A stretch of DNA of 64,000 nt from Trueperaceae bacterium (GTDB lineage: Bacteria; Deinococcota; Deinococci; Deinococcales; Trueperaceae), in the NCBI GenBank assembly GCA_034520945.1, contig JAXHNB010000002.1, positions 96,001 through 160,000 on the forward strand. The letters run 5' to 3'. Below, one piece after another: positions 6,443 to 19,164 of this stretch. The position numbers and the translations under genes were made by a program. The notes below the pieces were generated by a model. It was not told where the DNA came from, did not search any database, and was given only the letters and a program-made list of their open reading frames with translations. The stretch's first letter is position 1. Each line of letters begins with the position of its first letter.

Positions 6443-6486
6443 AGTTGGCCGATAGGGGCGGCTTGGAACGAGGAGAAAGGAGCGAG

Positions 6487-7881
6487 ATGGACATGAAGAG
6501 ATTCACGAGCGTATTCGCATCGCTGCTGGTCGGCCTGGCCGGCCTGGGACTGTTCACACTGGCGTGGGCGCAGGACGACGAAAGCCCCGCGGAGTACAGC
6601 GCCGACGTGAGCTACCGCCTCACCACCGGACTCGCCGAAGGCAAGATGGTGTTCTTCGGCGTGGGCGGCGACATCGACGGCGAAGTCAACCCCACGCTGA
6701 CCGCCGAGCCCGGCGACGTGGTGGCCGTGACGCTCGTCAACGGCGACGGCGTCCAGCACGACGTCCTGTTCGAGGGCTTCGCCAACGCGCAGAGCGACAT
6801 GGTCACCACGGAGGGCGCGAGCAGCACCTTCGTATTCCGCGCCAACGAAGAGGGCGCCTTCGACTACTACTGCACCGTGCCGGGCCACCGCCAGGCCGGC
6901 ATGGAGGGCAGCTTCGTGGTCGGCGAGGCCGAGGCCGCGGCCGACGACGCGGAGAGCATCGTGCGTGCCCCGACCGACCTGCCGGGACCGATCGCCGACC
7001 GGGACGAGCCGGTGCACCACGACGTCACCCTCACCACCGTGGAGAAGCAAGGCCGCCTGGCCGACGGCACCAGCTACCGCTTCTGGACCTTCGACGGCCA
7101 GGTCCCCGGGCCGCTCCTGCGGGTCCGGCAGAACGACACCGTCACCGTGACGTTGGAGAACCCTGCCGACAGCACCATGGTGCACTCGGTCGACTTCCAT
7201 GCCGTCACCGGTCCCGGCGGCGGCGCGGTGGCCACCCAGACGGCGCCGGGCGACGCCACCAGCTTCAGCTTCACGGCGCTGCAACCAGGCCTGTACGTCT
7301 ATCACTGCGCCACGCCGATGGTCGCCCACCACATCACCAACGGCATGTACGGCCTGATCCTGGTCGAGCCCGAGGAGGGCCTGGCCGAGGTCGACAACGA
7401 GTTCTACGTGATGCAGGGCGAGCTGTACACCCAGCAGGACTTCGGGCAGAAGGGCGAGCTCGACTTCAACGTCGACAAGCTGCTCGACGAACAGCCCGAG
7501 TACTACGTGTTCAACGGCGCCGTGGGCGCCCTGACGGGCGACGGCGCCCTCACGGCGGAGACCGGCGAGAGCGTTCGCATCTTCTTCGGTGTCGGCGGAC
7601 CCAACAAGACCAGCAGCTTCCACGTCATCGGCGAGATCTTCGAACGCGTCTACGACCAGGCCAGCCTCACCTCGCCACCCCTCACCGACGTCCAGACCAC
7701 CACCGTCGCCCCGGGCGGCGCCACCATGGTCGAGTTCGGCGTCGAGGTGCCGGGGACGTACATCCTGGTCGACCACGCGCTGAGCCGCGCCGAGCGCGGC
7801 CTGGCCGGCCACCTGGAGGTCAGCGGCGAAGGTGACCCCGACGTCTACCAGGGCGAGGTCACCGAGGGCAGCGGACACTGA
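6487..7881 (+). CDS. nirK: Copper-containing nitrite reductase with signal peptide and extra N-terminal cupredoxin domain
   Basis: Signal peptide ending AWAQ; cupredoxin HDV..YYCTVPGHRQAGM; NirK core HSVDFH, YHC..H..NGMYG, SSFHVIG, LVDH. Alternative ATG at 6493. Confidence 0.95.
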   Translation: MDMKRFTSVFASLLVGLAGLGLFTLAWAQDDESPAEYSADVSYRLTTGLAEGKMVFFGVGGDIDGEVNPTLTAEPGDVVAVTLVNGDGVQHDVLFEGFANAQSDMVTTEGASSTFVFRANEEGAFDYYCTVPGHRQAGMEGSFVVGEAEAAADDAESIVRAPTDLPGPIADRDEPVHHDVTLTTVEKQGRLADGTSYRFWTFDGQVPGPLLRVRQNDTVTVTLENPADSTMVHSVDFHAVTGPGGGAVATQTAPGDATSFSFTALQPGLYVYHCATPMVAHHITNGMYGLILVEPEEGLAEVDNEFYVMQGELYTQQDFGQKGELDFNVDKLLDEQPEYYVFNGAVGALTGDGALTAETGESVRIFFGVGGPNKTSSFHVIGEIFERVYDQASLTSPPLTDVQTTTVAPGGATMVEFGVEVPGTYILVDHALSRAERGLAGHLEVSGEGDPDVYQGEVTEGSGH

Positions 7882-10455: not shown

Positions 10456-13026
10456 CTACCCGGGCCCGTCGCCGCCGATCCGGTTCTGCTGGTCGACCGG
10501 CTGCCGGTGACCCTCGCATCGCGGCTCGAACACCTCCTCCAGGGCGCTGAACAGTGCACGATGCTCGTCCATCAACGCCTCCGCGTATCGCTCCACCGTG
10601 GTGCGTGGCGCGCGGTGACGGAGCGCCTCCTCCAGCATCGTGCCGGCCTCGGTGAGAGGCGTGGCGCCGAGGCTGCTGGATAGCCCACGCATGGTGTGCA
10701 CCGCACGTTCGGCGGCTTCCAGATCGGACGCACGCAAAGCGGTAGCGAGGTCCGTGGGGAGGTCGCGTTGGTCGTCGAAGAACCCGCACAAGATCTTCGT
10801 GTAGACCTCCGGTTTGCCCATCGCGTAGCGGAGGCCCCGATCGACGTCCAAGCCGGGAACGGTGCGCAGCGTCTCGAGGCTCACGCTACGGTTCATGTCC
10901 GCTTCGTCAGGGGCGTCGTGTTCCGCAGGGGGGGCGGCCCGGCCACCGTCCGGCGGGGCGCCGTGGCTGCGCCCCCTGCCCTCGCTGGGGGCCTCGGCGC
11001 CCTGCGGGCCTGGGGCCCAGCGCAGCAGCGCGCGCCACAGGTCGTCCGGGTCGATGGGCTTGGTGACCACCTCGTTCATGCCGGCCTCGACGCAGTCTCG
11101 ACGGTCCTTCTCCAGGGCACTGGCGGTCATGGCGATGACCGGCAGCGTGGCCAAGTCCGGGTCACCACGGATCGCACGCGTGGCGGCCAAGCCGTCCAGG
11201 ACGGGCATCTGCACGTCCATGAAAACCAGGTCGTAGGGGGCCGCGCGCAGGGCGTCGAGGGCGCGCTGACCGTCGCTCACCACGTCGGCGGCCAGCCCCC
11301 GACCTCGTAGCAGGGCGGTGGAGACCTCCTGATTGAGCTGGTTGTCCTCGACCAGCAGGATGCGCAGGCCACGCAACGCCTCCGCGTCGGGCCCACCTTC
11401 CGAGCCAGCATCGGCCGATGCGGCCGTGCCATCGTGCGCCGACGCCATGCCGAACCAGGAGGCGACCGTCTCGAACACCACCGAACCGTCGACAGGGGTG
11501 GCCAGCACGCCGTCGATGTCGCCGTTCTCCTGATCGGCGTTCTGGCGTGACGGGGCCCCATCGGTGGCGGTGAGGAACACGCCCGGGGCGGGGGTGCGTG
11601 CCCGTTCACGGAGCTGTCGCGCGACGGCGGGGCCGCTCACGTCCGGCAGGTGCGAAGAGACGAACACCAACTCGGGGGCCTGGGCCGCGTCGCGGTAGCG
11701 TCGTAGCGCTTCACGGCCCGAGGTGGCCTCCTCGACGTGGAGTCCGATGCGGTCCAGCATGCTGCACAGCAGTTCGCGTCGGGTGGTGGCGTCGTCGGCG
11801 ACCAGCGCGCGGCGCCCGCGTAGTTCGCTGTGCAGCGCGCGGATCAGGGGACGTGACGCGGCCGGCGCGAAGCGGGCGGTGAACCAAAAGGTCGAGCCGA
11901 CCCCCACGCGGCTCTCCACCCCGATCTGGCCACCCATCAGGTGGGCCAGGCTCTTCGAGATCGCCAGCCCGAGACCCGTGCCGCCGTAGCGCCGGGTAAT
12001 GGTGGGATCTGCCTGCGCGAAGTGGGTGAACAGCCCGCGCTTCTGTTGCTCGTTCATGCCGACGCCGGTATCACGAACCGCGAAGCGCAACGCCACCTGC
12101 TGCGCCTCGCCGGGGAGGCGCGCGACCGAGAGGGCGATCCCACCTTCGTCGGTGAACTTCACCGCGTTGTTGACCAGGTTGACCAGCACCTGGCGAAGCC
12201 TCAAGGGATCGCCTTCGACGCGCTCGGGTACCTCCCGGGCGATGTCGACCGTCAGGGCCAAGCCCTTCTCGTCGCACGCACCGCCGACCAGGGTCGTGAC
12301 CTCCTCCAGCACCTTGGCCAGCCGGAACTCGTTGCGCTCCAGCGTCAGCTTGCCCGCCTCGAGCTTGGACGCGTCCAGGACGGTGTCGATGATGCCCAGC
12401 AGGTGACGGCTGGCGCTCTCGATCTTGTCGAGGTAGTTGCGTTGCCGGGCCGTGAGATCTGTGCCGAGCGCCAGGCGGTTCATGCCGACGATCGCGTTCA
12501 TCGGGGTGCGGATCTCGTGGCTCATGTTGGCGAGGAACTGCGCCTTGGCCTCGACGGCCAGCTCGGCCTCGCGACTGGACCGCCGCAGCGCCTCGTTGCT
12601 GTCCCGAAGCTCCGCCAGCAGCTCCTCACGCGAGCGTGCCGTGACGATCTCGCGGCTCCGCTCGACCTCGTCGGCCCGTGGTGCACCGTCGCGCAGGCGG
12701 CGGCGAAGCGTCAGCCGTCCCTGCGGCCCATCGTACGTGCGGGTGGCGGCGGCGGCCGGCACGGGGGCGTACGCAGCCGTTGCTGCGGCGTCCTCCCATG
12801 CGAACGCCAGGACGAGGTGCGTACCGTGCGCCGCCACCTCGACCGAAAGCGTCAGGCGCGGCCGGGTGGCGTGCGCGGTAAGCCAGCGCGTGACGTCCGA
12901 GGCCTCCCCGGCCATCCGGGCGCCCAGGTCGCGACCCCCTCCGAGCACGCACACGACCTCGTAGGTCTTGGCCCGCACGCGCGCGTGGCCCACGCGCGCG
13001 GGGTCGAGGGTGCCCAGGGGATTCAT
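10456..13026 (-). CDS. Cytoplasmic hybrid histidine kinase (degenerate RsbT-like N-domain, HisKA, HATPase, pseudo-REC, REC, Hpt)
   Basis: FLANMSHEIRTPMN H-box, NLVNNAVKFT, DTGVG, GGTGLGLAI, intact REC DLVFMDVQMP, Hpt AVHTMRG. No TM segment. ATGA coupling to the upstream gene. Confidence 0.93.
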   Translation of the reverse strand: MNPLGTLDPARVGHARVRAKTYEVVCVLGGGRDLGARMAGEASDVTRWLTAHATRPRLTLSVEVAAHGTHLVLAFAWEDAAATAAYAPVPAAAATRTYDGPQGRLTLRRRLRDGAPRADEVERSREIVTARSREELLAELRDSNEALRRSSREAELAVEAKAQFLANMSHEIRTPMNAIVGMNRLALGTDLTARQRNYLDKIESASRHLLGIIDTVLDASKLEAGKLTLERNEFRLAKVLEEVTTLVGGACDEKGLALTVDIAREVPERVEGDPLRLRQVLVNLVNNAVKFTDEGGIALSVARLPGEAQQVALRFAVRDTGVGMNEQQKRGLFTHFAQADPTITRRYGGTGLGLAISKSLAHLMGGQIGVESRVGVGSTFWFTARFAPAASRPLIRALHSELRGRRALVADDATTRRELLCSMLDRIGLHVEEATSGREALRRYRDAAQAPELVFVSSHLPDVSGPAVARQLRERARTPAPGVFLTATDGAPSRQNADQENGDIDGVLATPVDGSVVFETVASWFGMASAHDGTAASADAGSEGGPDAEALRGLRILLVEDNQLNQEVSTALLRGRGLAADVVSDGQRALDALRAAPYDLVFMDVQMPVLDGLAATRAIRGDPDLATLPVIAMTASALEKDRRDCVEAGMNEVVTKPIDPDDLWRALLRWAPGPQGAEAPSEGRGRSHGAPPDGGRAAPPAEHDAPDEADMNRSVSLETLRTVPGLDVDRGLRYAMGKPEVYTKILCGFFDDQRDLPTDLATALRASDLEAAERAVHTMRGLSSSLGATPLTEAGTMLEEALRHRAPRTTVERYAEALMDEHRALFSALEEVFEPRCEGHRQPVDQQNRIGGDGPG

Positions 13027-14108
13027 GCCCGCCACCTCGCCAGCAGGAACGCGGCGTCGTCGTGAGGTCTGGCATGATCCTGCACCACGGCGTCCGCGAC
13101 CGCCAGAAGGTCTCCCGATCCCAGGAGGCCTTGCGCCGTCCGTCCCGCCGTGGCGTGCAAACCGTCGGTCCAAAGGGCGATCACGTCGCCCGGTGCGATC
13201 GTCAACGACTGGACGAACGGCGTGGGCCAGCGGCGGCCCACGATGCCCCCTCGCGACACGCCGCGCCAACTGGTTGCGTGCCCGCCCCCGATGCGGGCCG
13301 CACGGGCGTTCCCGACCGCCAAGTACCGCATGCGGCTCGTCTGGGTGTCCAACAGCGCCAGGGCGACCGCGGCGCCTACCGTGCCGAGGGCCGCCCGGTG
13401 CAGCTGGGCCATCAGCGTGTCCAGCTTCACCTCCGCGTGGTGTGCCACCTCCGCCGCCAGGGTGCGCGCGACGCGGTGGGCGGCGGCGCCGTGACCGGTG
13501 GCGTCCATCATCGCCAGCAGAAGTCGCGCCCCTTGGTCGATCACCACCACATCGTCGCCCGAGACGAGTCGTCCCGTTCGCGGCCGGACCACGCTGGCGG
13601 CCTCCCAGCGCGTCGAGGTGTCGTGCGTGCGGCGGTGGACGGGCGGGAAACGCCCCTGGAAGCCGGAAGCGTCACCCCGTAGGTACTTGCGCACGTGCAC
13701 GACGGTGCCGCCTCCGGGCCGGCTCCGGATCTCGACCTCGTCCGCCATGCGACGAACGCCGGGCAGTCCCAGGCCCAGAGTATGGCCGGTACTGTAGTGA
13801 TCCTCGAACGCGCGTGCGACGTCGGCGATGCCGGGACCCTCGTCGTTGACCAGGATCTCGATGGCGAACGCGTCCTGCGTGGCCCCCTCGCCTGGCAGGC
13901 GGCGAAGCTCCAGCCACCCGCGCGTTCCGTACTTGAGCACGTTCGAGGCGAGCTCGGAGACGATGGTGCCGATGACGGAGCGCTCCTGCTCGGAGGCGCC
14001 CTGCAGCAAGGCCGAACGTTGGCTGCGGAGCACGGCGAGTTGCAGGTCGAGGGGACGTTTCAGTTCGTAGCGCTCCGGGGCCGCGTGCGGTGACTCAGTG
14101 CCGCTCAT
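13023..14108 (-). CDS. RsbT-like Ser/Thr kinase fused to PP2C/SpoIIE (RsbX-like) phosphatase
   Basis: Kinase motifs SELASNVLKYG, DEGPGIAD, YSTGHTLGLGLPGVRRMADE; PP2C motifs SGDD, DATGHG, TDGL, DDA. Confidence 0.9.
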   Translation of the reverse strand: MSGTESPHAAPERYELKRPLDLQLAVLRSQRSALLQGASEQERSVIGTIVSELASNVLKYGTRGWLELRRLPGEGATQDAFAIEILVNDEGPGIADVARAFEDHYSTGHTLGLGLPGVRRMADEVEIRSRPGGGTVVHVRKYLRGDASGFQGRFPPVHRRTHDTSTRWEAASVVRPRTGRLVSGDDVVVIDQGARLLLAMMDATGHGAAAHRVARTLAAEVAHHAEVKLDTLMAQLHRAALGTVGAAVALALLDTQTSRMRYLAVGNARAARIGGGHATSWRGVSRGGIVGRRWPTPFVQSLTIAPGDVIALWTDGLHATAGRTAQGLLGSGDLLAVADAVVQDHARPHDDAAFLLARWRA

Positions 14109-14496
14109 CGTCGCCGGGTTGCTGCGCGAGCGCGTCGTCCAGGTCGCGAAGGGCAGTGAACGACGAGGTGTCGAGGCCTGCATCGACCAAGTAAGCCACG
14201 ATCCCGGCGCGCAAGCCCACCACCACGGGACGGACGCCCAACAAGCGTCCGGCATTCGCCAGCGCCGTCAGGAACGCGAAGTCGGAGGCGTCGATCACCT
14301 CCAGCCCCGAACACTCGAAGATCAGGTCCGTGGTGGGCCGCGCCTGCAACCGATCGAGCACCGCGCCGCGGAGCGTGCGGAAGGTGCCCTCCGACAGTTC
14401 GGAGGGCAGCGTCACCACCAACGCTCGCCCGACGCGCGTGGCCGCAACGCCCGCGGGGCCGTCGGGCTGCGATTCGTGCGACGAACCGGCAGGCAC
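14095..14496 (-). CDS. rsbS: RsbS-like STAS protein
   Basis: STAS pattern LIFECSGLEVID...RLLGVRPVVVGLRAGIVAYLVDAG...DLDDAL, between rsbR and the RsbT-like gene. GTG start uncertain. Confidence 0.8.
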   Translation of the reverse strand: MPAGSSHESQPDGPAGVAATRVGRALVVTLPSELSEGTFRTLRGAVLDRLQARPTTDLIFECSGLEVIDASDFAFLTALANAGRLLGVRPVVVGLRAGIVAYLVDAGLDTSSFTALRDLDDALAQQPGDDERH

Positions 14497-14507
14497 GGGA
14501 ATGCCGC

Positions 14508-15452
14508 TCAGGACTCGTCGGGCGCCCTGCGGGTGCGTGGCAGGTGCGCATCGTCCCCGACGATGCCGAGGGCGATCTCGAACGCGTCGCGCAGGGTCGC
14601 GGTGGTTCGGATCCGGCCGATGTCGACGCCGAGCTCGACCATGGTGAACGCGATCTCGGGTGCGATCCCGGAGACGATCGCTTCGCAGCCCATCAACCGC
14701 GTGGCGTGCGTGATCTTGACGAGTTGGTCGGCGACGGCCGTGTCGACCGTCCGCACGCCGCTGATGTCCAGCATGAAGACCTTGGCGCGACTGTCGGCGA
14801 TCATCGACAACGTCTTGGTCATGATCTCCTGGGTGCGGCTCGAATCGAGCACACCCACCAACGGCAACAGCAGGATGCCCTCCCAGATCGGCGTGACCGG
14901 GGTGGCCTGCTCGAACAGCTCCTCGCTGCGCGCTTCCAGCAGCGCGTTCTCCTCGGCCGCACGTTCGGCGCCCTCGCGTTCCGCCAGATAGATCTGGTCG
15001 ATGACCAGGTGCGTGTCGAGAAAGACCATCTTCTCGATGGCTGCCGCCATGGCGCCGAGCTGTTCAGGCACGGGTCGAACGTTGTGAAGCCGTTCCTGCA
15101 ACAGCCTGTCGGACATGAACATGCCCGCGAAGTAGATGACGTTGGGCAGGTCGATCCGTCCGTGGACCGCCCCGACGTGGCGGCGCGCCGCCACGTAGTC
15201 GTCGTCGATTTTGCCTTGGAAGAAGCCGGTCCAGTGCTCCAGCTGCCGTTGCTGCACGTGCGCCAGCAGGTCGGGCGCGTTGCCGAAGAAGGTCTCGAAC
15301 TCGTCGTGACCCCGCAACCACGCGTACCAATCGTCCACGAAGTCCGGCAGCTGCGGGATCAGGTGCGTACCGGCTTCGCGGACCCGTTCGAGATCGAACT
15401 CGCTGATCTCGAACGTGTCGAGCAGGGTCGTCCGGTCGTCGGCTTCGGGCAT
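14508..15452 (-). CDS. rsbR: RsbR-like stressosome sensor: protoglobin/sensor-globin domain plus STAS
   Basis: Globin pattern FVDDWY..HW..FF.G.IDDDY...RRHVGAVHGRIDL; STAS PVTPIWEGILLLPLVGVLDSSR..DISGVRTVDTAVA. RBS GAGGAG. Confidence 0.92.
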   Translation of the reverse strand: MPEADDRTTLLDTFEISEFDLERVREAGTHLIPQLPDFVDDWYAWLRGHDEFETFFGNAPDLLAHVQQRQLEHWTGFFQGKIDDDYVAARRHVGAVHGRIDLPNVIYFAGMFMSDRLLQERLHNVRPVPEQLGAMAAAIEKMVFLDTHLVIDQIYLAEREGAERAAEENALLEARSEELFEQATPVTPIWEGILLLPLVGVLDSSRTQEIMTKTLSMIADSRAKVFMLDISGVRTVDTAVADQLVKITHATRLMGCEAIVSGIAPEIAFTMVELGVDIGRIRTTATLRDAFEIALGIVGDDAHLPRTRRAPDES

Positions 15453-16135: not shown

Positions 16136-16200
16136 CGACCGGGGGCGTCACGGCAGTCGAAAGCGCGCCATCGTCCCCGCCACCCGCTATGGTGAACGAC

Positions 16201-19164
16201 GTGACGTTGCGAACCTTCGGGGCGTTGACGCTGGGCGACGGCACCTTCACCCGGCCGACACCGCTGATGCTGCTGGCGTACCTCGCGGTCGAGGGGCCGC
16301 GGGAGCGCCGCTTCCTGGCGCAGTTGTTCTGGCCGCACGCGGCGGATCCGCTGCGCAGCCTCGGCGTGGCGTTGGCGCGGCTCAGGCGCGGCGCCCCCGG
16401 GTCCATCGAAGCGGACGCCCAACGCGCCTGGGCGACGGTGCCGTCGGACGTCGACACCTTCCTGACCCGCTTGGAGGAGGGCGACGAATCCGGCGCCCTG
16501 GAGGCGTACCGCGGTCCGTTCCTCGCAGGCGTGGATCTGTCGCGTGCCGGCGTCGAACTCGAGGAGTGGGTGTACGCCACCCGTGAGCTGCTGGCCGTGC
16601 GGGCCGTCGGCGCCGCGCTCGAACTGGCCGAACGCGACGCGGCGGGCGGCCGGTTCGAGGCGGCCGCGCGGCGCGCCGCCGAGGCGTTGGACTGGGTGGA
16701 CGCGTCGGTGCTGGAACCGGAGGACCTCGTCCGCCTGCACGCCGTGCTCCGGGCAGGCGATCACCCCCGTGCCGCGGCGTTGCGCCGTGAAGCCGAGACG
16801 TACGGCCTCGAGCTGGATGCCTCGCGGCCCGAGGCGCGCGGGCGCCTGGGGCGCCGCTCGGCGAGCGTTCTCAGGCGCTCGCACCCCATGCTGGGGACGG
16901 CGTTCGTGGGGCGCGACCCCGAGTTGACGGAGGTGGCGTCGTACCTCTCGAAGCGGGACGGGCGGCTGCTCACGGTGGTCGGAGCGCCCGGGGTGGGCAA
17001 GACCCGCTTGGCGTTGCAGGTCGCCCACGAGCAGGCAGAGCTCGGGGCCTTCCGGGACGGGATCCACCTGGTCGCCCTGGAGGCCGTGAGCGACGCGCAC
17101 CGTGTGCCCGCGGCGATCGCCGAGGCGATGGGCCTGGACCTGGGCGCGGTGGGCGAACCGCTCGAGGCGGTGAAGGACGCACTGCGCGACGGCGACGCGT
17201 TGCTCGTGGTGGACAACGTCGAGCACGTGCTGGAGGGCACCACCGTCCTGCCCGCGCTGCTGGCGGAATGCCCCGGCCTGTCCATCCTGGTGACATCGCG
17301 CGAACGGCTGAACGTGCGGGAGGAGGAGGTGTTTCCGCTCGGCGGGCTGCCGCTGCCCGAGCACGATCCCCCCTTGGAGGAGGCGATCCGTCTGGATGCG
17401 GTCCGGTTGTTCGCGCAACGCGCCAAGCGGGCGCAGCCGAGCTTCGAACTGGACGAACGCACCATCTCGCACGTGCTCCGCATCTGCCGCGTGGTGGAGG
17501 GGCAACCGCTGTTGCTGGAACTGGCGGCCGTGTGGGTTCGGGTGCTGCCGTGCGCCGCGATCGCCGAGGAGATCGCGGGCAACCTCGACCTGATGACGAG
17601 CACGTCGCGGGACAGGCCGGAGCGGCACAAGAGCCTGCGCGGCACCTTCGAGCACTCCTGGAAGCTGCTGGGCGACGCGGAGCGCGAGGCGCTGAAGCAG
17701 CTCGCCGTGTTCCAGGGCGGCTTCGGGCGCGAGGCGGCCCGCCGGGTGGCGGGGGCCACGCTGGCGGTGCTCGCCTCGCTGGTGGATGCGTCGCTCCTCC
17801 GGGTGACGCCCGCCTGGCGCTACGACCGCCACCCCATGCTGCACGCCTTCACCAAGGAGAAGTTGGCCGAGGACCCCCAGGCGCAGGTGGCCGCCCGGGA
17901 GCGGCACGGCCTGTACTACGCGCGCCGCCTGCGAGAGCTGGCCGGCGAGCTGGACCTGGGGGGCGAACGCCAGCGCACGGCCCTGCGGTTCATCGACCAC
18001 GAACTCGAGAACGTGCGGGCCGCGTGGCGGTGGCTGGTCCACGATCAACGCGCCCGCGAACTCGAGGAGGGCAGCGAGGCGTTGCACCGCCTCCTGCAGC
18101 ACCGCGGCCGTCACCGCGAAGGCGAGGCGCTGCTGCGAGAGGCCATCGCCGGCCTGCGTGAGGACGCGTCCGAACACCGCTCGGCGCTGGGGGCGTTGCG
18201 GACCGCCCTGGCGGTGCTGGTGTACCGACTCGGCGACGTAGAGGAGGCCGAGACGCTGTCGCGGGAGGGGTTGCAGCGACTCCCCCAGGACCGCGCGGGG
18301 CCGGCGCATCACCGGGGGCTGAACACGCTGGGCTTGGCCGCATGGCGGCGTGGGGCGTGGGCCGAAAGCCGCGTCCTGTGGGAACAGGCCCTGTCACGTG
18401 CACGGCAGGGCGGACACCCCGTCTCCGTCTACACCTACCTGGTGAATCTGGCGGTCGTCGAACGCTCGGACGGGAACGTCGCGCAGGCCGAGGCCTACCT
18501 GCGTGAAGCCTTGCAGCTGATCCGAGCGCGCGAGGACCATATCAACATGGTGCTGGCGCTGAACAACCTGGGGGAGCTGGCGTTGATGCAGGATCAACCC
18601 GCAGCCGCGGAGGCCCGACTGGAGGAGGCGCTACAGCAGGCGGACGACCTTGGGGCCGACGAGCTGGTGCCGATGTGCCTTCTGAACCTGGCGCTGGCCG
18701 CCTTCGAGCAGCGACGGTTCCAGCGCGCGGCCAGCCGTACCGACGAGGCGCTGGAACGCCTGCAAGGCAGGGGGATGCGCACGCTCGAGATCGGGGCGCT
18801 GGCCCTAAAGGGGCGCGTCGCGGCCGCCCGCAGTCATCCGAAGGATGCCCGCGACGCGTTCGCGGCGTGCATCCGGGCGTTCGGAGAAAGCGGCGCCACC
18901 ACGGTCGTTCTCAAGGCTCTGGGCTGGATCGCCGAGTGGCACGCCCACGAAGGGCGCACCGCCAAGGCGGTCGAGATCGCACGACACGTGGTCGCCCATC
19001 CCGCCACCGAACCGGACGACCGCAAGGGCGGCGCGCGCCTGCTCGACGGGCTCGGCCGCGCTGCACGGGAGGGCGTGCAGGCCGAGGGCGCAGCCCACGA
19101 CCACGAGGCCCGCCTGCCGGAGCTGGTGGCCGAGGTGTCACGCGACGTGCTGCAGGGCGCGTGA
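16201..19164 (+). CDS. STAND-type NTPase with BTAD-like N-terminus and TPR C-terminus (AfsR/SARP-like regulator)
   Basis: LLAYLAVEG..R..LA.LFWP, YRGPFL..LEEW, FVGRDPEL, Walker A GAPGVGKT, DNVEH, TSRERL, TPR-like LNNLG repeats. GTG start chosen from TATGGT 7 nt upstream; alternative ATG at 16189. Confidence 0.88.
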   Translation: MTLRTFGALTLGDGTFTRPTPLMLLAYLAVEGPRERRFLAQLFWPHAADPLRSLGVALARLRRGAPGSIEADAQRAWATVPSDVDTFLTRLEEGDESGALEAYRGPFLAGVDLSRAGVELEEWVYATRELLAVRAVGAALELAERDAAGGRFEAAARRAAEALDWVDASVLEPEDLVRLHAVLRAGDHPRAAALRREAETYGLELDASRPEARGRLGRRSASVLRRSHPMLGTAFVGRDPELTEVASYLSKRDGRLLTVVGAPGVGKTRLALQVAHEQAELGAFRDGIHLVALEAVSDAHRVPAAIAEAMGLDLGAVGEPLEAVKDALRDGDALLVVDNVEHVLEGTTVLPALLAECPGLSILVTSRERLNVREEEVFPLGGLPLPEHDPPLEEAIRLDAVRLFAQRAKRAQPSFELDERTISHVLRICRVVEGQPLLLELAAVWVRVLPCAAIAEEIAGNLDLMTSTSRDRPERHKSLRGTFEHSWKLLGDAEREALKQLAVFQGGFGREAARRVAGATLAVLASLVDASLLRVTPAWRYDRHPMLHAFTKEKLAEDPQAQVAARERHGLYYARRLRELAGELDLGGERQRTALRFIDHELENVRAAWRWLVHDQRARELEEGSEALHRLLQHRGRHREGEALLREAIAGLREDASEHRSALGALRTALAVLVYRLGDVEEAETLSREGLQRLPQDRAGPAHHRGLNTLGLAAWRRGAWAESRVLWEQALSRARQGGHPVSVYTYLVNLAVVERSDGNVAQAEAYLREALQLIRAREDHINMVLALNNLGELALMQDQPAAAEARLEEALQQADDLGADELVPMCLLNLALAAFEQRRFQRAASRTDEALERLQGRGMRTLEIGALALKGRVAAARSHPKDARDAFAACIRAFGESGATTVVLKALGWIAEWHAHEGRTAKAVEIARHVVAHPATEPDDRKGGARLLDGLGRAAREGVQAEGAAHDHEARLPELVAEVSRDVLQGA

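Follow-up and report, generated by a model that had tools for sequence, protein, structure and literature searches.

A putative Vibrio-type heme stressosome operon in Trueperaceae with an output kinase headed by a pseudo-RsbT domain

A four-gene operon on the minus strand of a 64,000-nucleotide stretch of Trueperaceae DNA (the window) encodes what, judging from its sequence, is very probably a stressosome with heme, and its output hybrid kinase starts with a conserved domain that is a catalytically degraded relative of the switch kinase RsbT. The overall design is known, being that of the Vibrio-type heme stressosome; that the output kinase is coupled to such a stressosome through this dead copy of the switch kinase is a reading to which we give an even chance.

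Results

Operon layout and genomic setting

The closely packed genes rsbR, rsbS, an rsbT-rsbX fusion and a hybrid kinase gene are separated by a gap of 11 nt (rsbR/rsbS), an overlap of 14 nt (rsbS/fusion) and an overlap of 4 nt (fusion/kinase; ATGA). Pfam domains and gene spacing thus uphold the compact operon of globin-STAS RsbR, RsbS, RsbT-PP2C and hybrid kinase that a sequence-only reading had described, and a synteny survey recovered the entire four-gene order in related Trueperaceae (loci L001-L005, L022, L025 and L055), so the arrangement is not due to chance. The loci closest to the operon belong to named Trueperaceae, in agreement with the suspected placement in Deinococcota. The cassette was not found in 10/10 other genomes of the same genus, and near-identical DNA was present in a second study (e.g., 21 differences over 1701 letters of an rsbR-rsbS-rsbT piece). 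The GC content of the operon (0.699, vs 0.708 for the genome) bears no trace of recent transfer; a proteobacterial origin is suggested by an unrooted tree with support of only 80/57. No promoter-like site was detected at the operon, and its one terminator is at chance level.

As the earlier reading had stated, neither a response regulator nor rsbU, rsbV, rsbW or sigB lies nearby: the window holds no receiver domain beyond those of the hybrid kinase, and SigB, RsbU, RsbV and RsbW were not found genome-wide (genome 97% complete), nor was a second RsbT/RsbW at the same completeness. Genome-wide, sigma70-r2 had three matches, by inspection two RpoD-like and one ECF-like, and the other matches were two PrpC-like PP2Cs and one SulP STAS. 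At 2.6 kb from the operon lies a gene for a copper nitrite reductase (TIGR02376 match exceeding the cut-off), with a second copy on contig C6.

Sensor, scaffold and switch proteins

The rsbR gene (14,508..15,452, minus strand), with GAGGAG upstream of its ATG, encodes 314 aa comprising a sensor globin (residues 9-152; Pfam Protoglobin, E 6e-24) and a STAS domain (residues 186-288; E 2e-11). The best PDB match in a profile search was V. vulnificus RsbR (7O0I; E 1.8e-89, 297 positions, full length). The globin carries Tyr43 and the proximal His97, the STAS domain Asp203, Ser204 and Thr238; among aligned homologues, His97, Asp203 and Thr238 are each conserved in 120/120 and Tyr43 in 118/120. This is the make-up of a Vibrio-type RsbR, with an N-terminal sensor globin bearing proximal His and distal Tyr and a C-terminal STAS domain, and the 7O0I match and the conservation of His97 and Tyr43 bear out the heme-globin stressosome proposed earlier.

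Directly behind it, as in Vibrio modules, rsbS (14,095..14,496, minus strand; GTG start presumed) encodes a single STAS domain (133 aa; Pfam) whose best match is VvRsbS. Alanine occupies the position of the phospho-serine of B. subtilis and Listeria (Ser59 equivalent); at this site the 12 globin-type rows have Ala (9/12), Ser or Thr (2/12) or Val (1/12), and the canonical rows Ser (4/4). As the usual serine is missing from RsbS, Thr238 of RsbR is the most likely phosphosite; RsbS may remain a substrate, since V. brasiliensis RsbS is phosphorylated at a site that was not identified (PMC4976288).

The third gene (13,023..14,108, minus strand) is a single ORF of 361 aa with HATPase_c_2 and SpoIIE domains (Pfam), and the fusion recurs at L001-L005, L020, L022, L025 and L055. 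Its RsbT half (about 13,680-14,075, minus strand) has intact N, G1 and G2 boxes (E52, N56, D89-x-G91, G112-x-G114) and is followed by an RsbX-type PP2C (about 13,029-13,613, minus strand; D185, D202, D315, D350, D351), the catalytic residues of both being conserved in 118-120 of 120 fusions. Vibrio-type modules have these elements as separate single-domain RsbT and RsbX proteins (PMC9237108); here they form one ORF, which makes the operon a variant of that module. In a tree sampling 8 of 119 fusion homologues (P0068 duplicates L025), the kinase half clusters with stand-alone RsbT of the Vibrio type (87/88). Descent of the fusion from a T'X gene left over after RsbT loss was rejected, the fused-domain clade (98/95) standing apart from the T'X domains (100/98). 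Listings from literature searches contained no description of an RsbT-RsbX fusion or of the pseudo-RsbT domain, and no paper on Trueperaceae and the stressosome.

The hybrid kinase

The last gene (10,456..13,026, minus strand; ATG at 13,026) encodes an 856-aa kinase with pseudo-RsbT, HisKA, HATPase_c, pseudo-receiver (400-515), receiver and Hpt domains. His170 (HisKA), Asp604 with its Lys (receiver) and His777 (Hpt) are intact, in keeping with the His-Asp phosphorelay make-up previously recognised, and in the first, degenerate receiver Ser stands in place of Asp at 457 and Thr in place of Lys. The HisKA His, CA domain, receiver Asp/Lys and Hpt His are those of BarA/ArcB-type unorthodox hybrid kinases, the membrane anchor or sensor being absent; the likeness is one of architecture only, because the BarA model scores below its cut-off. 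The one receiver-HD-GYP protein of the genome (C2:305075-306211) was rejected as a cassette-specific partner, having matches in 97/128 family genomes.

No transmembrane segment (highest 19-residue hydropathy 1.33) and no Pfam match to PAS or GAF were found in the kinase, so its description as cytoplasmic and devoid of TM or PAS stands; the label "sensorless" fails, as residues 1-135 (12,622..13,026, minus strand) form a conserved, folded domain, without Pfam annotation, from which a helix runs into HisKA. The model of this domain (pLDDT 89.5) was matched by VIA to RsbW (Z 11.0, rmsd 2.3, 96 aligned) and SpoIIAB (Z 10.5, rmsd 3.1, 110 aligned), with non-GHKL rows at or below 5.8; UsfX, SpoIIAB and RsbW were the top Foldseek rows, none reaching E 0.001. 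Using a trimmed alignment, hhalign matched the domain to 11 stand-alone RsbTs at 96.7% (E 3e-10) and four control profiles at less than 1%; before trimming, the 42-row alignment produced a match that ran through the CA domain of the kinase itself. The 8-row domain profile by itself did not detect the RsbT link (0.2% vs the fusion), querying the PDB by sequence with the domain yielded only chance rows, and the top Atlas features were unnamed clusters, with HATPase_c_2 at 0.86 as a lead only. The domain has the RsbT/RsbW/SpoIIAB-type GHKL fold and is homologous to these proteins. Since its ATP-binding motifs are lost (N-box Asn 0/42, DxGxG 1/42, GxG[LF] 0/42), it is a pseudo-kinase and not an active member.

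Arg18 and Ser43 are invariant (42/42), and Lys/Arg20 and Arg47 are also kept across these 42 diverse sequences, from which P0148 (a HEAT-repeat protein, false hit) and P0130 (same N-terminus as L003) had been dropped. In the alignment, Arg18 falls opposite the arginine in helix A of canonical RsbTs, which by our own mapping would correspond to R19 of B. subtilis RsbT, a partner-binding residue according to the available text of PMC12143880; at the equivalent site of the fused RsbTs, Val is found in 78/120 and Arg falls outside the five commonest residues. The domain is found at the head of kinases, of a PP2C and of a cyclase, and its exclusive linkage to stressosomes is established in Deinococcota only, with gene context for a minority of the 32 family representatives. 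Its identity among close relatives is 40-45%, vs about 89% for the RsbR STAS domain. In the genome counts, 7/8 profile rows came from genomes that were then counted, and the G053 match (E 4.8e-5, positions 20-64 only) was treated as chance. Complex prediction of the RsbR STAS with the domain scored 0.00 in both runs with the controls not folded, and it weighs on neither side.

Discussion

By close homology, RsbR and RsbS would form a STAS cage whose globin binds heme, and loss of O2 would turn on the kinase, as it does in V. brasiliensis. The fused RsbT-RsbX, which has the required residues, would write and erase phosphate, most likely on Thr238 of RsbR, whose phosphorylation would thus follow the O2 status of the heme. 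The pseudo-RsbT domain, whose fold is shown, is probably the input of the kinase. SpoIIAB and SpoIIAA dock through an Arg-Asp pair, which motivates the idea that the domain mimics RsbT and docks on a STAS face of the cage; this is the favoured coupling route, held tentatively and at somewhat below even odds, in which phosphorylation of RsbR would free or re-pose the domain and thereby shift the helix running into HisKA. Phosphate would then pass from His170 through Asp604 and His777, all present, to an unlinked response regulator; analogy alone makes the receiver-HD-GYP protein a candidate for this role. A broader and still more speculative proposal is that pseudo-RsbT may be the missing adaptor of RsbU-less stressosomes, through which hybrid kinases, PP2Cs, cyclases and Vibrio D1-type kinases would dock on the cage as dead RsbT mimics, with the RsbS serine switch gone here and the bifunctional RsbT-RsbX setting Thr238 according to O2; outputs docking on the cage itself would require no diffusing RsbT.

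The domain could also be the input and have released RsbT-RsbX, not the cage, as its partner, through a SpoIIAB-type RsbT/pseudo-RsbT heterodimer or phosphorylation of Ser43. We consider this rather unlikely. The invariance of Ser43 fits it, as does the phosphorylation of V. brasiliensis RsbT on a serine, not mapped to Ser43, in a helix predicted for dimerisation (PMC4976288); however, active RsbTs keep the same serine in 112/120, and its conservation may therefore be structural. The N-terminal domains of RsbU and of Moorella MtG mediate the action of RsbT on these proteins, as far as the available text of the sources goes, and kinase phosphorylation dependent on RsbT has been proposed, but a VvRsbT-VvD1 interaction was not obtained in a two-hybrid assay that also missed RsbT-RsbR and RsbT-RsbS (Heinz 2022, PMC9237108).

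It is quite improbable that what heads the kinase is a vestigial dimerisation cap, the kinase being constitutive or regulated otherwise and this copy of the cassette an orphan lacking a dedicated output. Such decay would accord with the fast divergence of the domain, the first receiver degenerate in this copy only, the failure to find the cassette in the 10 other genomes of the genus and the lack of a linked regulator, here as well as immediately after the cassette in most of the Trueperaceae loci; yet the four basic and serine positions are kept in diverse sequences, the domain recurs on outputs of unrelated kinds, the catalytic residues of all four genes are intact and the second study holds near-identical DNA. 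The wiring may instead be as favoured, with NO or the redox state of the heme replacing O2 as the physiological ligand, which is improbable: the neighbouring nitrite reductase gene and the intermediate activity of the V. brasiliensis system with NO and CO (PMC4976288) speak for it, but 23 related loci searched gave no nirK match, and the Tyr/His pair of the pocket is that of O2-binding Vibrio proteins.

Most proteins behind globin stressosomes lack RsbU_N and no RsbT-D1 interaction was found (Heinz 2022, PMC9237108); a 135-residue domain with two invariant residues makes the route from these stressosomes to their outputs directly testable. Being fully soluble, with one RsbR, a bench-switchable gas and a kinase read-out, the four-protein set suits full reconstitution, and the naturally fused kinase and phosphatase, together with the lack of the usual serine in RsbS, probe the need for two textbook steps, RsbT release and RsbS phosphorylation.

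Comparison with known systems

RSTX modules with a globin-RsbR and HisKA/REC/HPT proteins behind them have already been listed, and Deinococci named among RSTX carriers (Heinz 2022, PMC9237108), so the novelty of the wiring that the sequence-only reading implied is not supported. The V. vulnificus system consists of RSTX, kinase D1 and regulator D2, and its mutants have been examined in vivo according to the available text of PMC10014275. V. vulnificus RsbRSTX-VvD1-VvD2 (7O0I) and V. brasiliensis RsbRST share with this operon a single heme-globin RsbR, an RsbS without the canonical serine, the order RsbT, PP2C, kinase and the lack of a SigB cascade; here, in contrast, RsbT and RsbX are fused, the kinase has no PAS, no receiver-HD-GYP gene is linked and the host belongs to Deinococcota. 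In the matching module of Vibrio sp. THAF64, the kinase is HisKA-HATPase-REC-REC-Hpt, and against the pseudo-RsbT profile its first 140 residues reach 26.8 bits, vs a best of 5.8 for 500 shuffles; the Vibrio D1-type kinase is thus judged, on this profile match, to carry a degenerate copy of the domain.

Kinases behind canonical modules (Deinococcus, Phaeobacter, Paraburkholderia and two Trueperaceae loci) start with a recognisable RsbT-like domain and form one clade (98/94). These R-S-T-T'X-T''kinase modules (D. radiodurans MP1, Deinococcus KNUC1210, Phaeobacter, Paraburkholderia; L058, L017, L018, L059) resemble the operon in that an RsbT-like domain opens the output kinase, followed by a helix into the core, and differ in their non-heme RsbR, separate RsbT and retained RsbS serine. 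DxG is preserved in their T' and T'' domains, as is GxG in most rows, whereas the pseudo-RsbT family has lost both. The Bacillus/Listeria RsbRST-RsbU-RsbV-RsbW-SigB system has in common the STAS core, an RsbT-type switch kinase, PP2C reset and the conserved RsbR threonine, but it uses non-heme sensors, a serine switch in RsbS, the N-terminal domain of RsbU as receiver and a sigma factor as output, none of which was found here. Moorella thermoacetica RsbRST-MtG and the RsbU_N-kinases, as described in the available text, likewise join a stressosome to a non-sigma output by a coiled coil; their input is the helical RsbU_N, whereas that of the present kinase would be an alpha/beta GHKL-fold pseudo-kinase.

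Organisation and distribution of the stressosome operon

The globin-coupled stressosome operon is real and conserved. The four-gene operon proposed from the sequence-only reading occupies 15452-10456, with all its genes in tandem on the minus strand, and the Pfam domains bear out its composition: Protoglobin and STAS in the first (rsbR), STAS in the second (rsbS), HATPase_c_2 and SpoIIE in the third (the rsbT-rsbX fusion), and HisKA, HATPase_c, receiver and Hpt in the hybrid kinase. The kinase ATG at 13026 overlaps the preceding stop as ATGA, and homologues start at the same position. No clear transmembrane segment was found in any of the four proteins (highest 19-residue hydropathy 1.33-1.66), in line with the proposed cytoplasmic kinase. 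The reported absence of rsbU, rsbV, rsbW, sigB and a nearby response regulator also held, with no SigB-like sigma factor, RsbV, RsbW or RsbU-like phosphatase found in the 3.47-Mb, 97% complete genome, and no further receiver domain elsewhere within the window. The label "sensorless" did not stand, as a putative input domain of RsbT/RsbW-type fold (kinase residues 1-135) had been overlooked. The sigma70-r2 matches in the source genome number three, comprising two RpoD-like factors (C1:135.7 kb and C6:252.8 kb) and only one ECF-like factor.

The closest loci all belong to Trueperaceae (7/7), which agrees with the earlier placement in Deinococcota. In the family scan, RsbR-like matches occurred in 15 of 128 genomes (the source genome, nine with a close full-length globin RsbR, one whose globin RsbR is more distant, and four STAS-only); the remaining 10 members of the genus gave no match. 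A synteny survey of the compared loci found the four-gene order complete on L001-L005, L022, L025 and L055, interrupted by contig ends on L006, L007, L020, L023, L053 and L054, and represented by RsbR alone on L021, L024 and L026, with flanks varying from genome to genome. Most Trueperaceae kinases have one receiver; that of the source genome has two, the first degenerate. Among the homologues of the fusion are sequences assigned by name to Pseudomonas, Roseateles and Methylococcales. A transfer from Proteobacteria is plausible, with weak tree support.

Neighbouring genes included a copper nitrite reductase with an extra N-terminal cupredoxin domain (6445-7881, plus strand; TIGR02376 above cut-off), separated from the operon by 2.6 kb. 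Contig C6 carries another nirK-like gene, whereas the related loci showed no nirK next to the cassette. A large ATP-binding regulator with NB-ARC/AAA and TPR domains by Pfam (16192-19164, plus strand) has at least seven strong paralogues in the genome. In a search of 23 loci, in which five contigs were present twice, 10 contigs (L001, L002, L003, L004, L006, L007, L020, L022, L024 and L053) had a TIGR04190 B12-binding radical SAM gene no more than about 6 kb to one side or the other of the cassette. This gene had no match in the source genome; it is possibly an O2-sensitive client or a co-transferred gene.

A degenerate RsbT domain at the kinase N-terminus

Kinase residues 1-135 have no Pfam match. 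The predicted model (pLDDT 89.5) resembled RsbW (Z 11.0, rmsd 2.3, 96 aligned), SpoIIAB (Z 10.5, rmsd 3.1, 110 aligned), and Rv1364c and UsfX (Z 10.3), against Z ≤5.8 for non-GHKL structures; Foldseek ranked the same GHKL family first, with no row reaching E 0.001. The 42-row domain profile matched genuine RsbT genes at up to 40 bits, and its alignment with an RsbT profile (96.7%) covered 77 columns, stopping at the expected position of the DxG box. The ATP motifs are lost, while Arg18 and Ser43 are invariant. Since kinases behind canonical modules begin with a still recognisable RsbT-like domain, this pseudo-RsbT domain seems to be an extreme, eroded form of a more widespread arrangement.

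Among 1.8 billion representatives, a profile search with the domain returned 33 matches, 32 of them credible, mostly hybrid kinases, the others including a PP2C, a cyclase and two kinases with PAS and GAF domains, respectively; three of 20 clusters looked up had named members, all Pseudomonadota. The phylum scan matched 10 of 364 genomes (the source genome, eight strong matches and one weak partial match), and G136 alone had not contributed to the profile; all eight strong-match genomes also carry a close globin RsbR. In Vibrio aquimaris (L019), the domain (32.6 bits) is found on the hybrid kinase behind an RSTX (RsbR-RsbS-RsbT-RsbX) module in which PAS-like repeats replace the globin of RsbR; the domain extends beyond globin modules. 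A receiver-HD-GYP gene accompanies this kinase. The output (D1-type) kinase of Vibrio sp. THAF64 scored 26.8 bits with its linker, against a best of 5.8 among 500 shuffles, and 0.9 bits in its best stretch without it, which is suggestive of a pseudo-RsbT domain there too.

RsbR, RsbS and the RsbT-RsbX fusion

The RsbR profile matched V. vulnificus RsbR over its whole length (E 1.8e-89) and Listeria RsbR far more weakly (E about 1e-27, STAS only). His97, Asp203 and Thr238 are invariant in 120 aligned homologues and Tyr43 is kept in 118; we take the globin position labels B10/F8 to apply to RsbR. RsbS has Ala at the phospho-serine position of Listeria/Bacillus RsbS, a site occupied by Ala in nine of 12 globin-type rows (Val, Ser and Thr once each) and by Ser in 4/4 canonical rows. 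Because V. vulnificus RsbS has Gly there, the missing serine is a trait common to the Vibrio type.

The catalytic residues of both fusion halves are kept in 118-120 of 120 sequences. Many canonical modules have a T'-PP2C gene, with an RsbT-like T' domain, behind a separate RsbT, and the fusion might have been a leftover of such a gene; this was rejected on the grouping of the fused domains apart from T' in a 40-row tree of RsbT-type domains. There, 15 fused domains formed a single clade (98/95) that sat with four Vibrio-type stand-alone RsbTs (87/88, not starred), separate from seven T' domains (100/98). Gene 3 is thus most likely a true RsbT-RsbX fusion. The Trueperaceae locus L043 (G085:C1:3482000-3501000; GC 0.61) has globin RsbR, RsbS and still separate rsbT and rsbX genes in front of a kinase that also begins with the pseudo-RsbT domain. 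Behind this kinase comes another RsbR-like protein, which has two receivers and whose N-terminus is HAMP-like and membrane-linked.

Proposed mechanism and output

RsbR would bind heme and be gated by O2 as in V. brasiliensis, where, according to PMC4976288, deoxy RsbR activates RsbT. Thr238 may be the switch; Heinz 2022 (PMC9237108) gives the aligned Thr as the sole RsbR site accessible to docked RsbT.

The pseudo-RsbT domain would be the kinase input. Docking on a STAS face is favoured because the domain keeps the helix-A arginine, the RsbT half of the fused kinase has lost it and RsbR Asp203 is invariant, an argument modelled on the SpoIIAB Arg20-SpoIIAA Asp23 pair. In the alignment to canonical RsbTs, the arginine maps to B. 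subtilis RsbT R19, a partner-binding residue according to PMC12143880. Action of RsbT on the pseudo-RsbT domain is nearly as likely as STAS-face docking.

A receiver-HD-GYP gene is linked to the Vibrio modules and to L025. The one such gene of the source genome is the best match to these (35-36% identity) and, by analogy, a candidate acceptor for the Hpt, but it is widespread in the family. An identical kinase-regulator pair on two contigs of the source genome (C5:883-885 kb and C10:16-18 kb) represents duplication or assembly redundancy.

Relation to known stressosomes

The wiring had been overrated as a novelty: PMC9237108 already reports HisKA/REC/HPT outputs behind globin RSTX modules, as well as RSTX in Deinococci. 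The proposed input domain, rather than the wiring, is the part that matters. Neither a fusion of RsbT with RsbX nor a degenerate RsbT domain serving as input was described in the literature searched; older reviews or a figure of PMC9237108 could hold one. W-like domains on neighbouring genes were noticed before, as the mycobacterial 'rsbUW' genes indicate. Deinococcota also have a second, non-heme type (R-S-T-T'X-kinase; L017, L044-L047 and L058, the D. radiodurans plasmid MP1), for which the literature search found no study; its kinase starts with an RsbT-like domain in L017, L046, L047 and L058, and 17 Deinococcus plasmid records matched. By analogy, the present cassette would work like the Vibrio O2 stressosome, from which it differs by its fusion and by its host.
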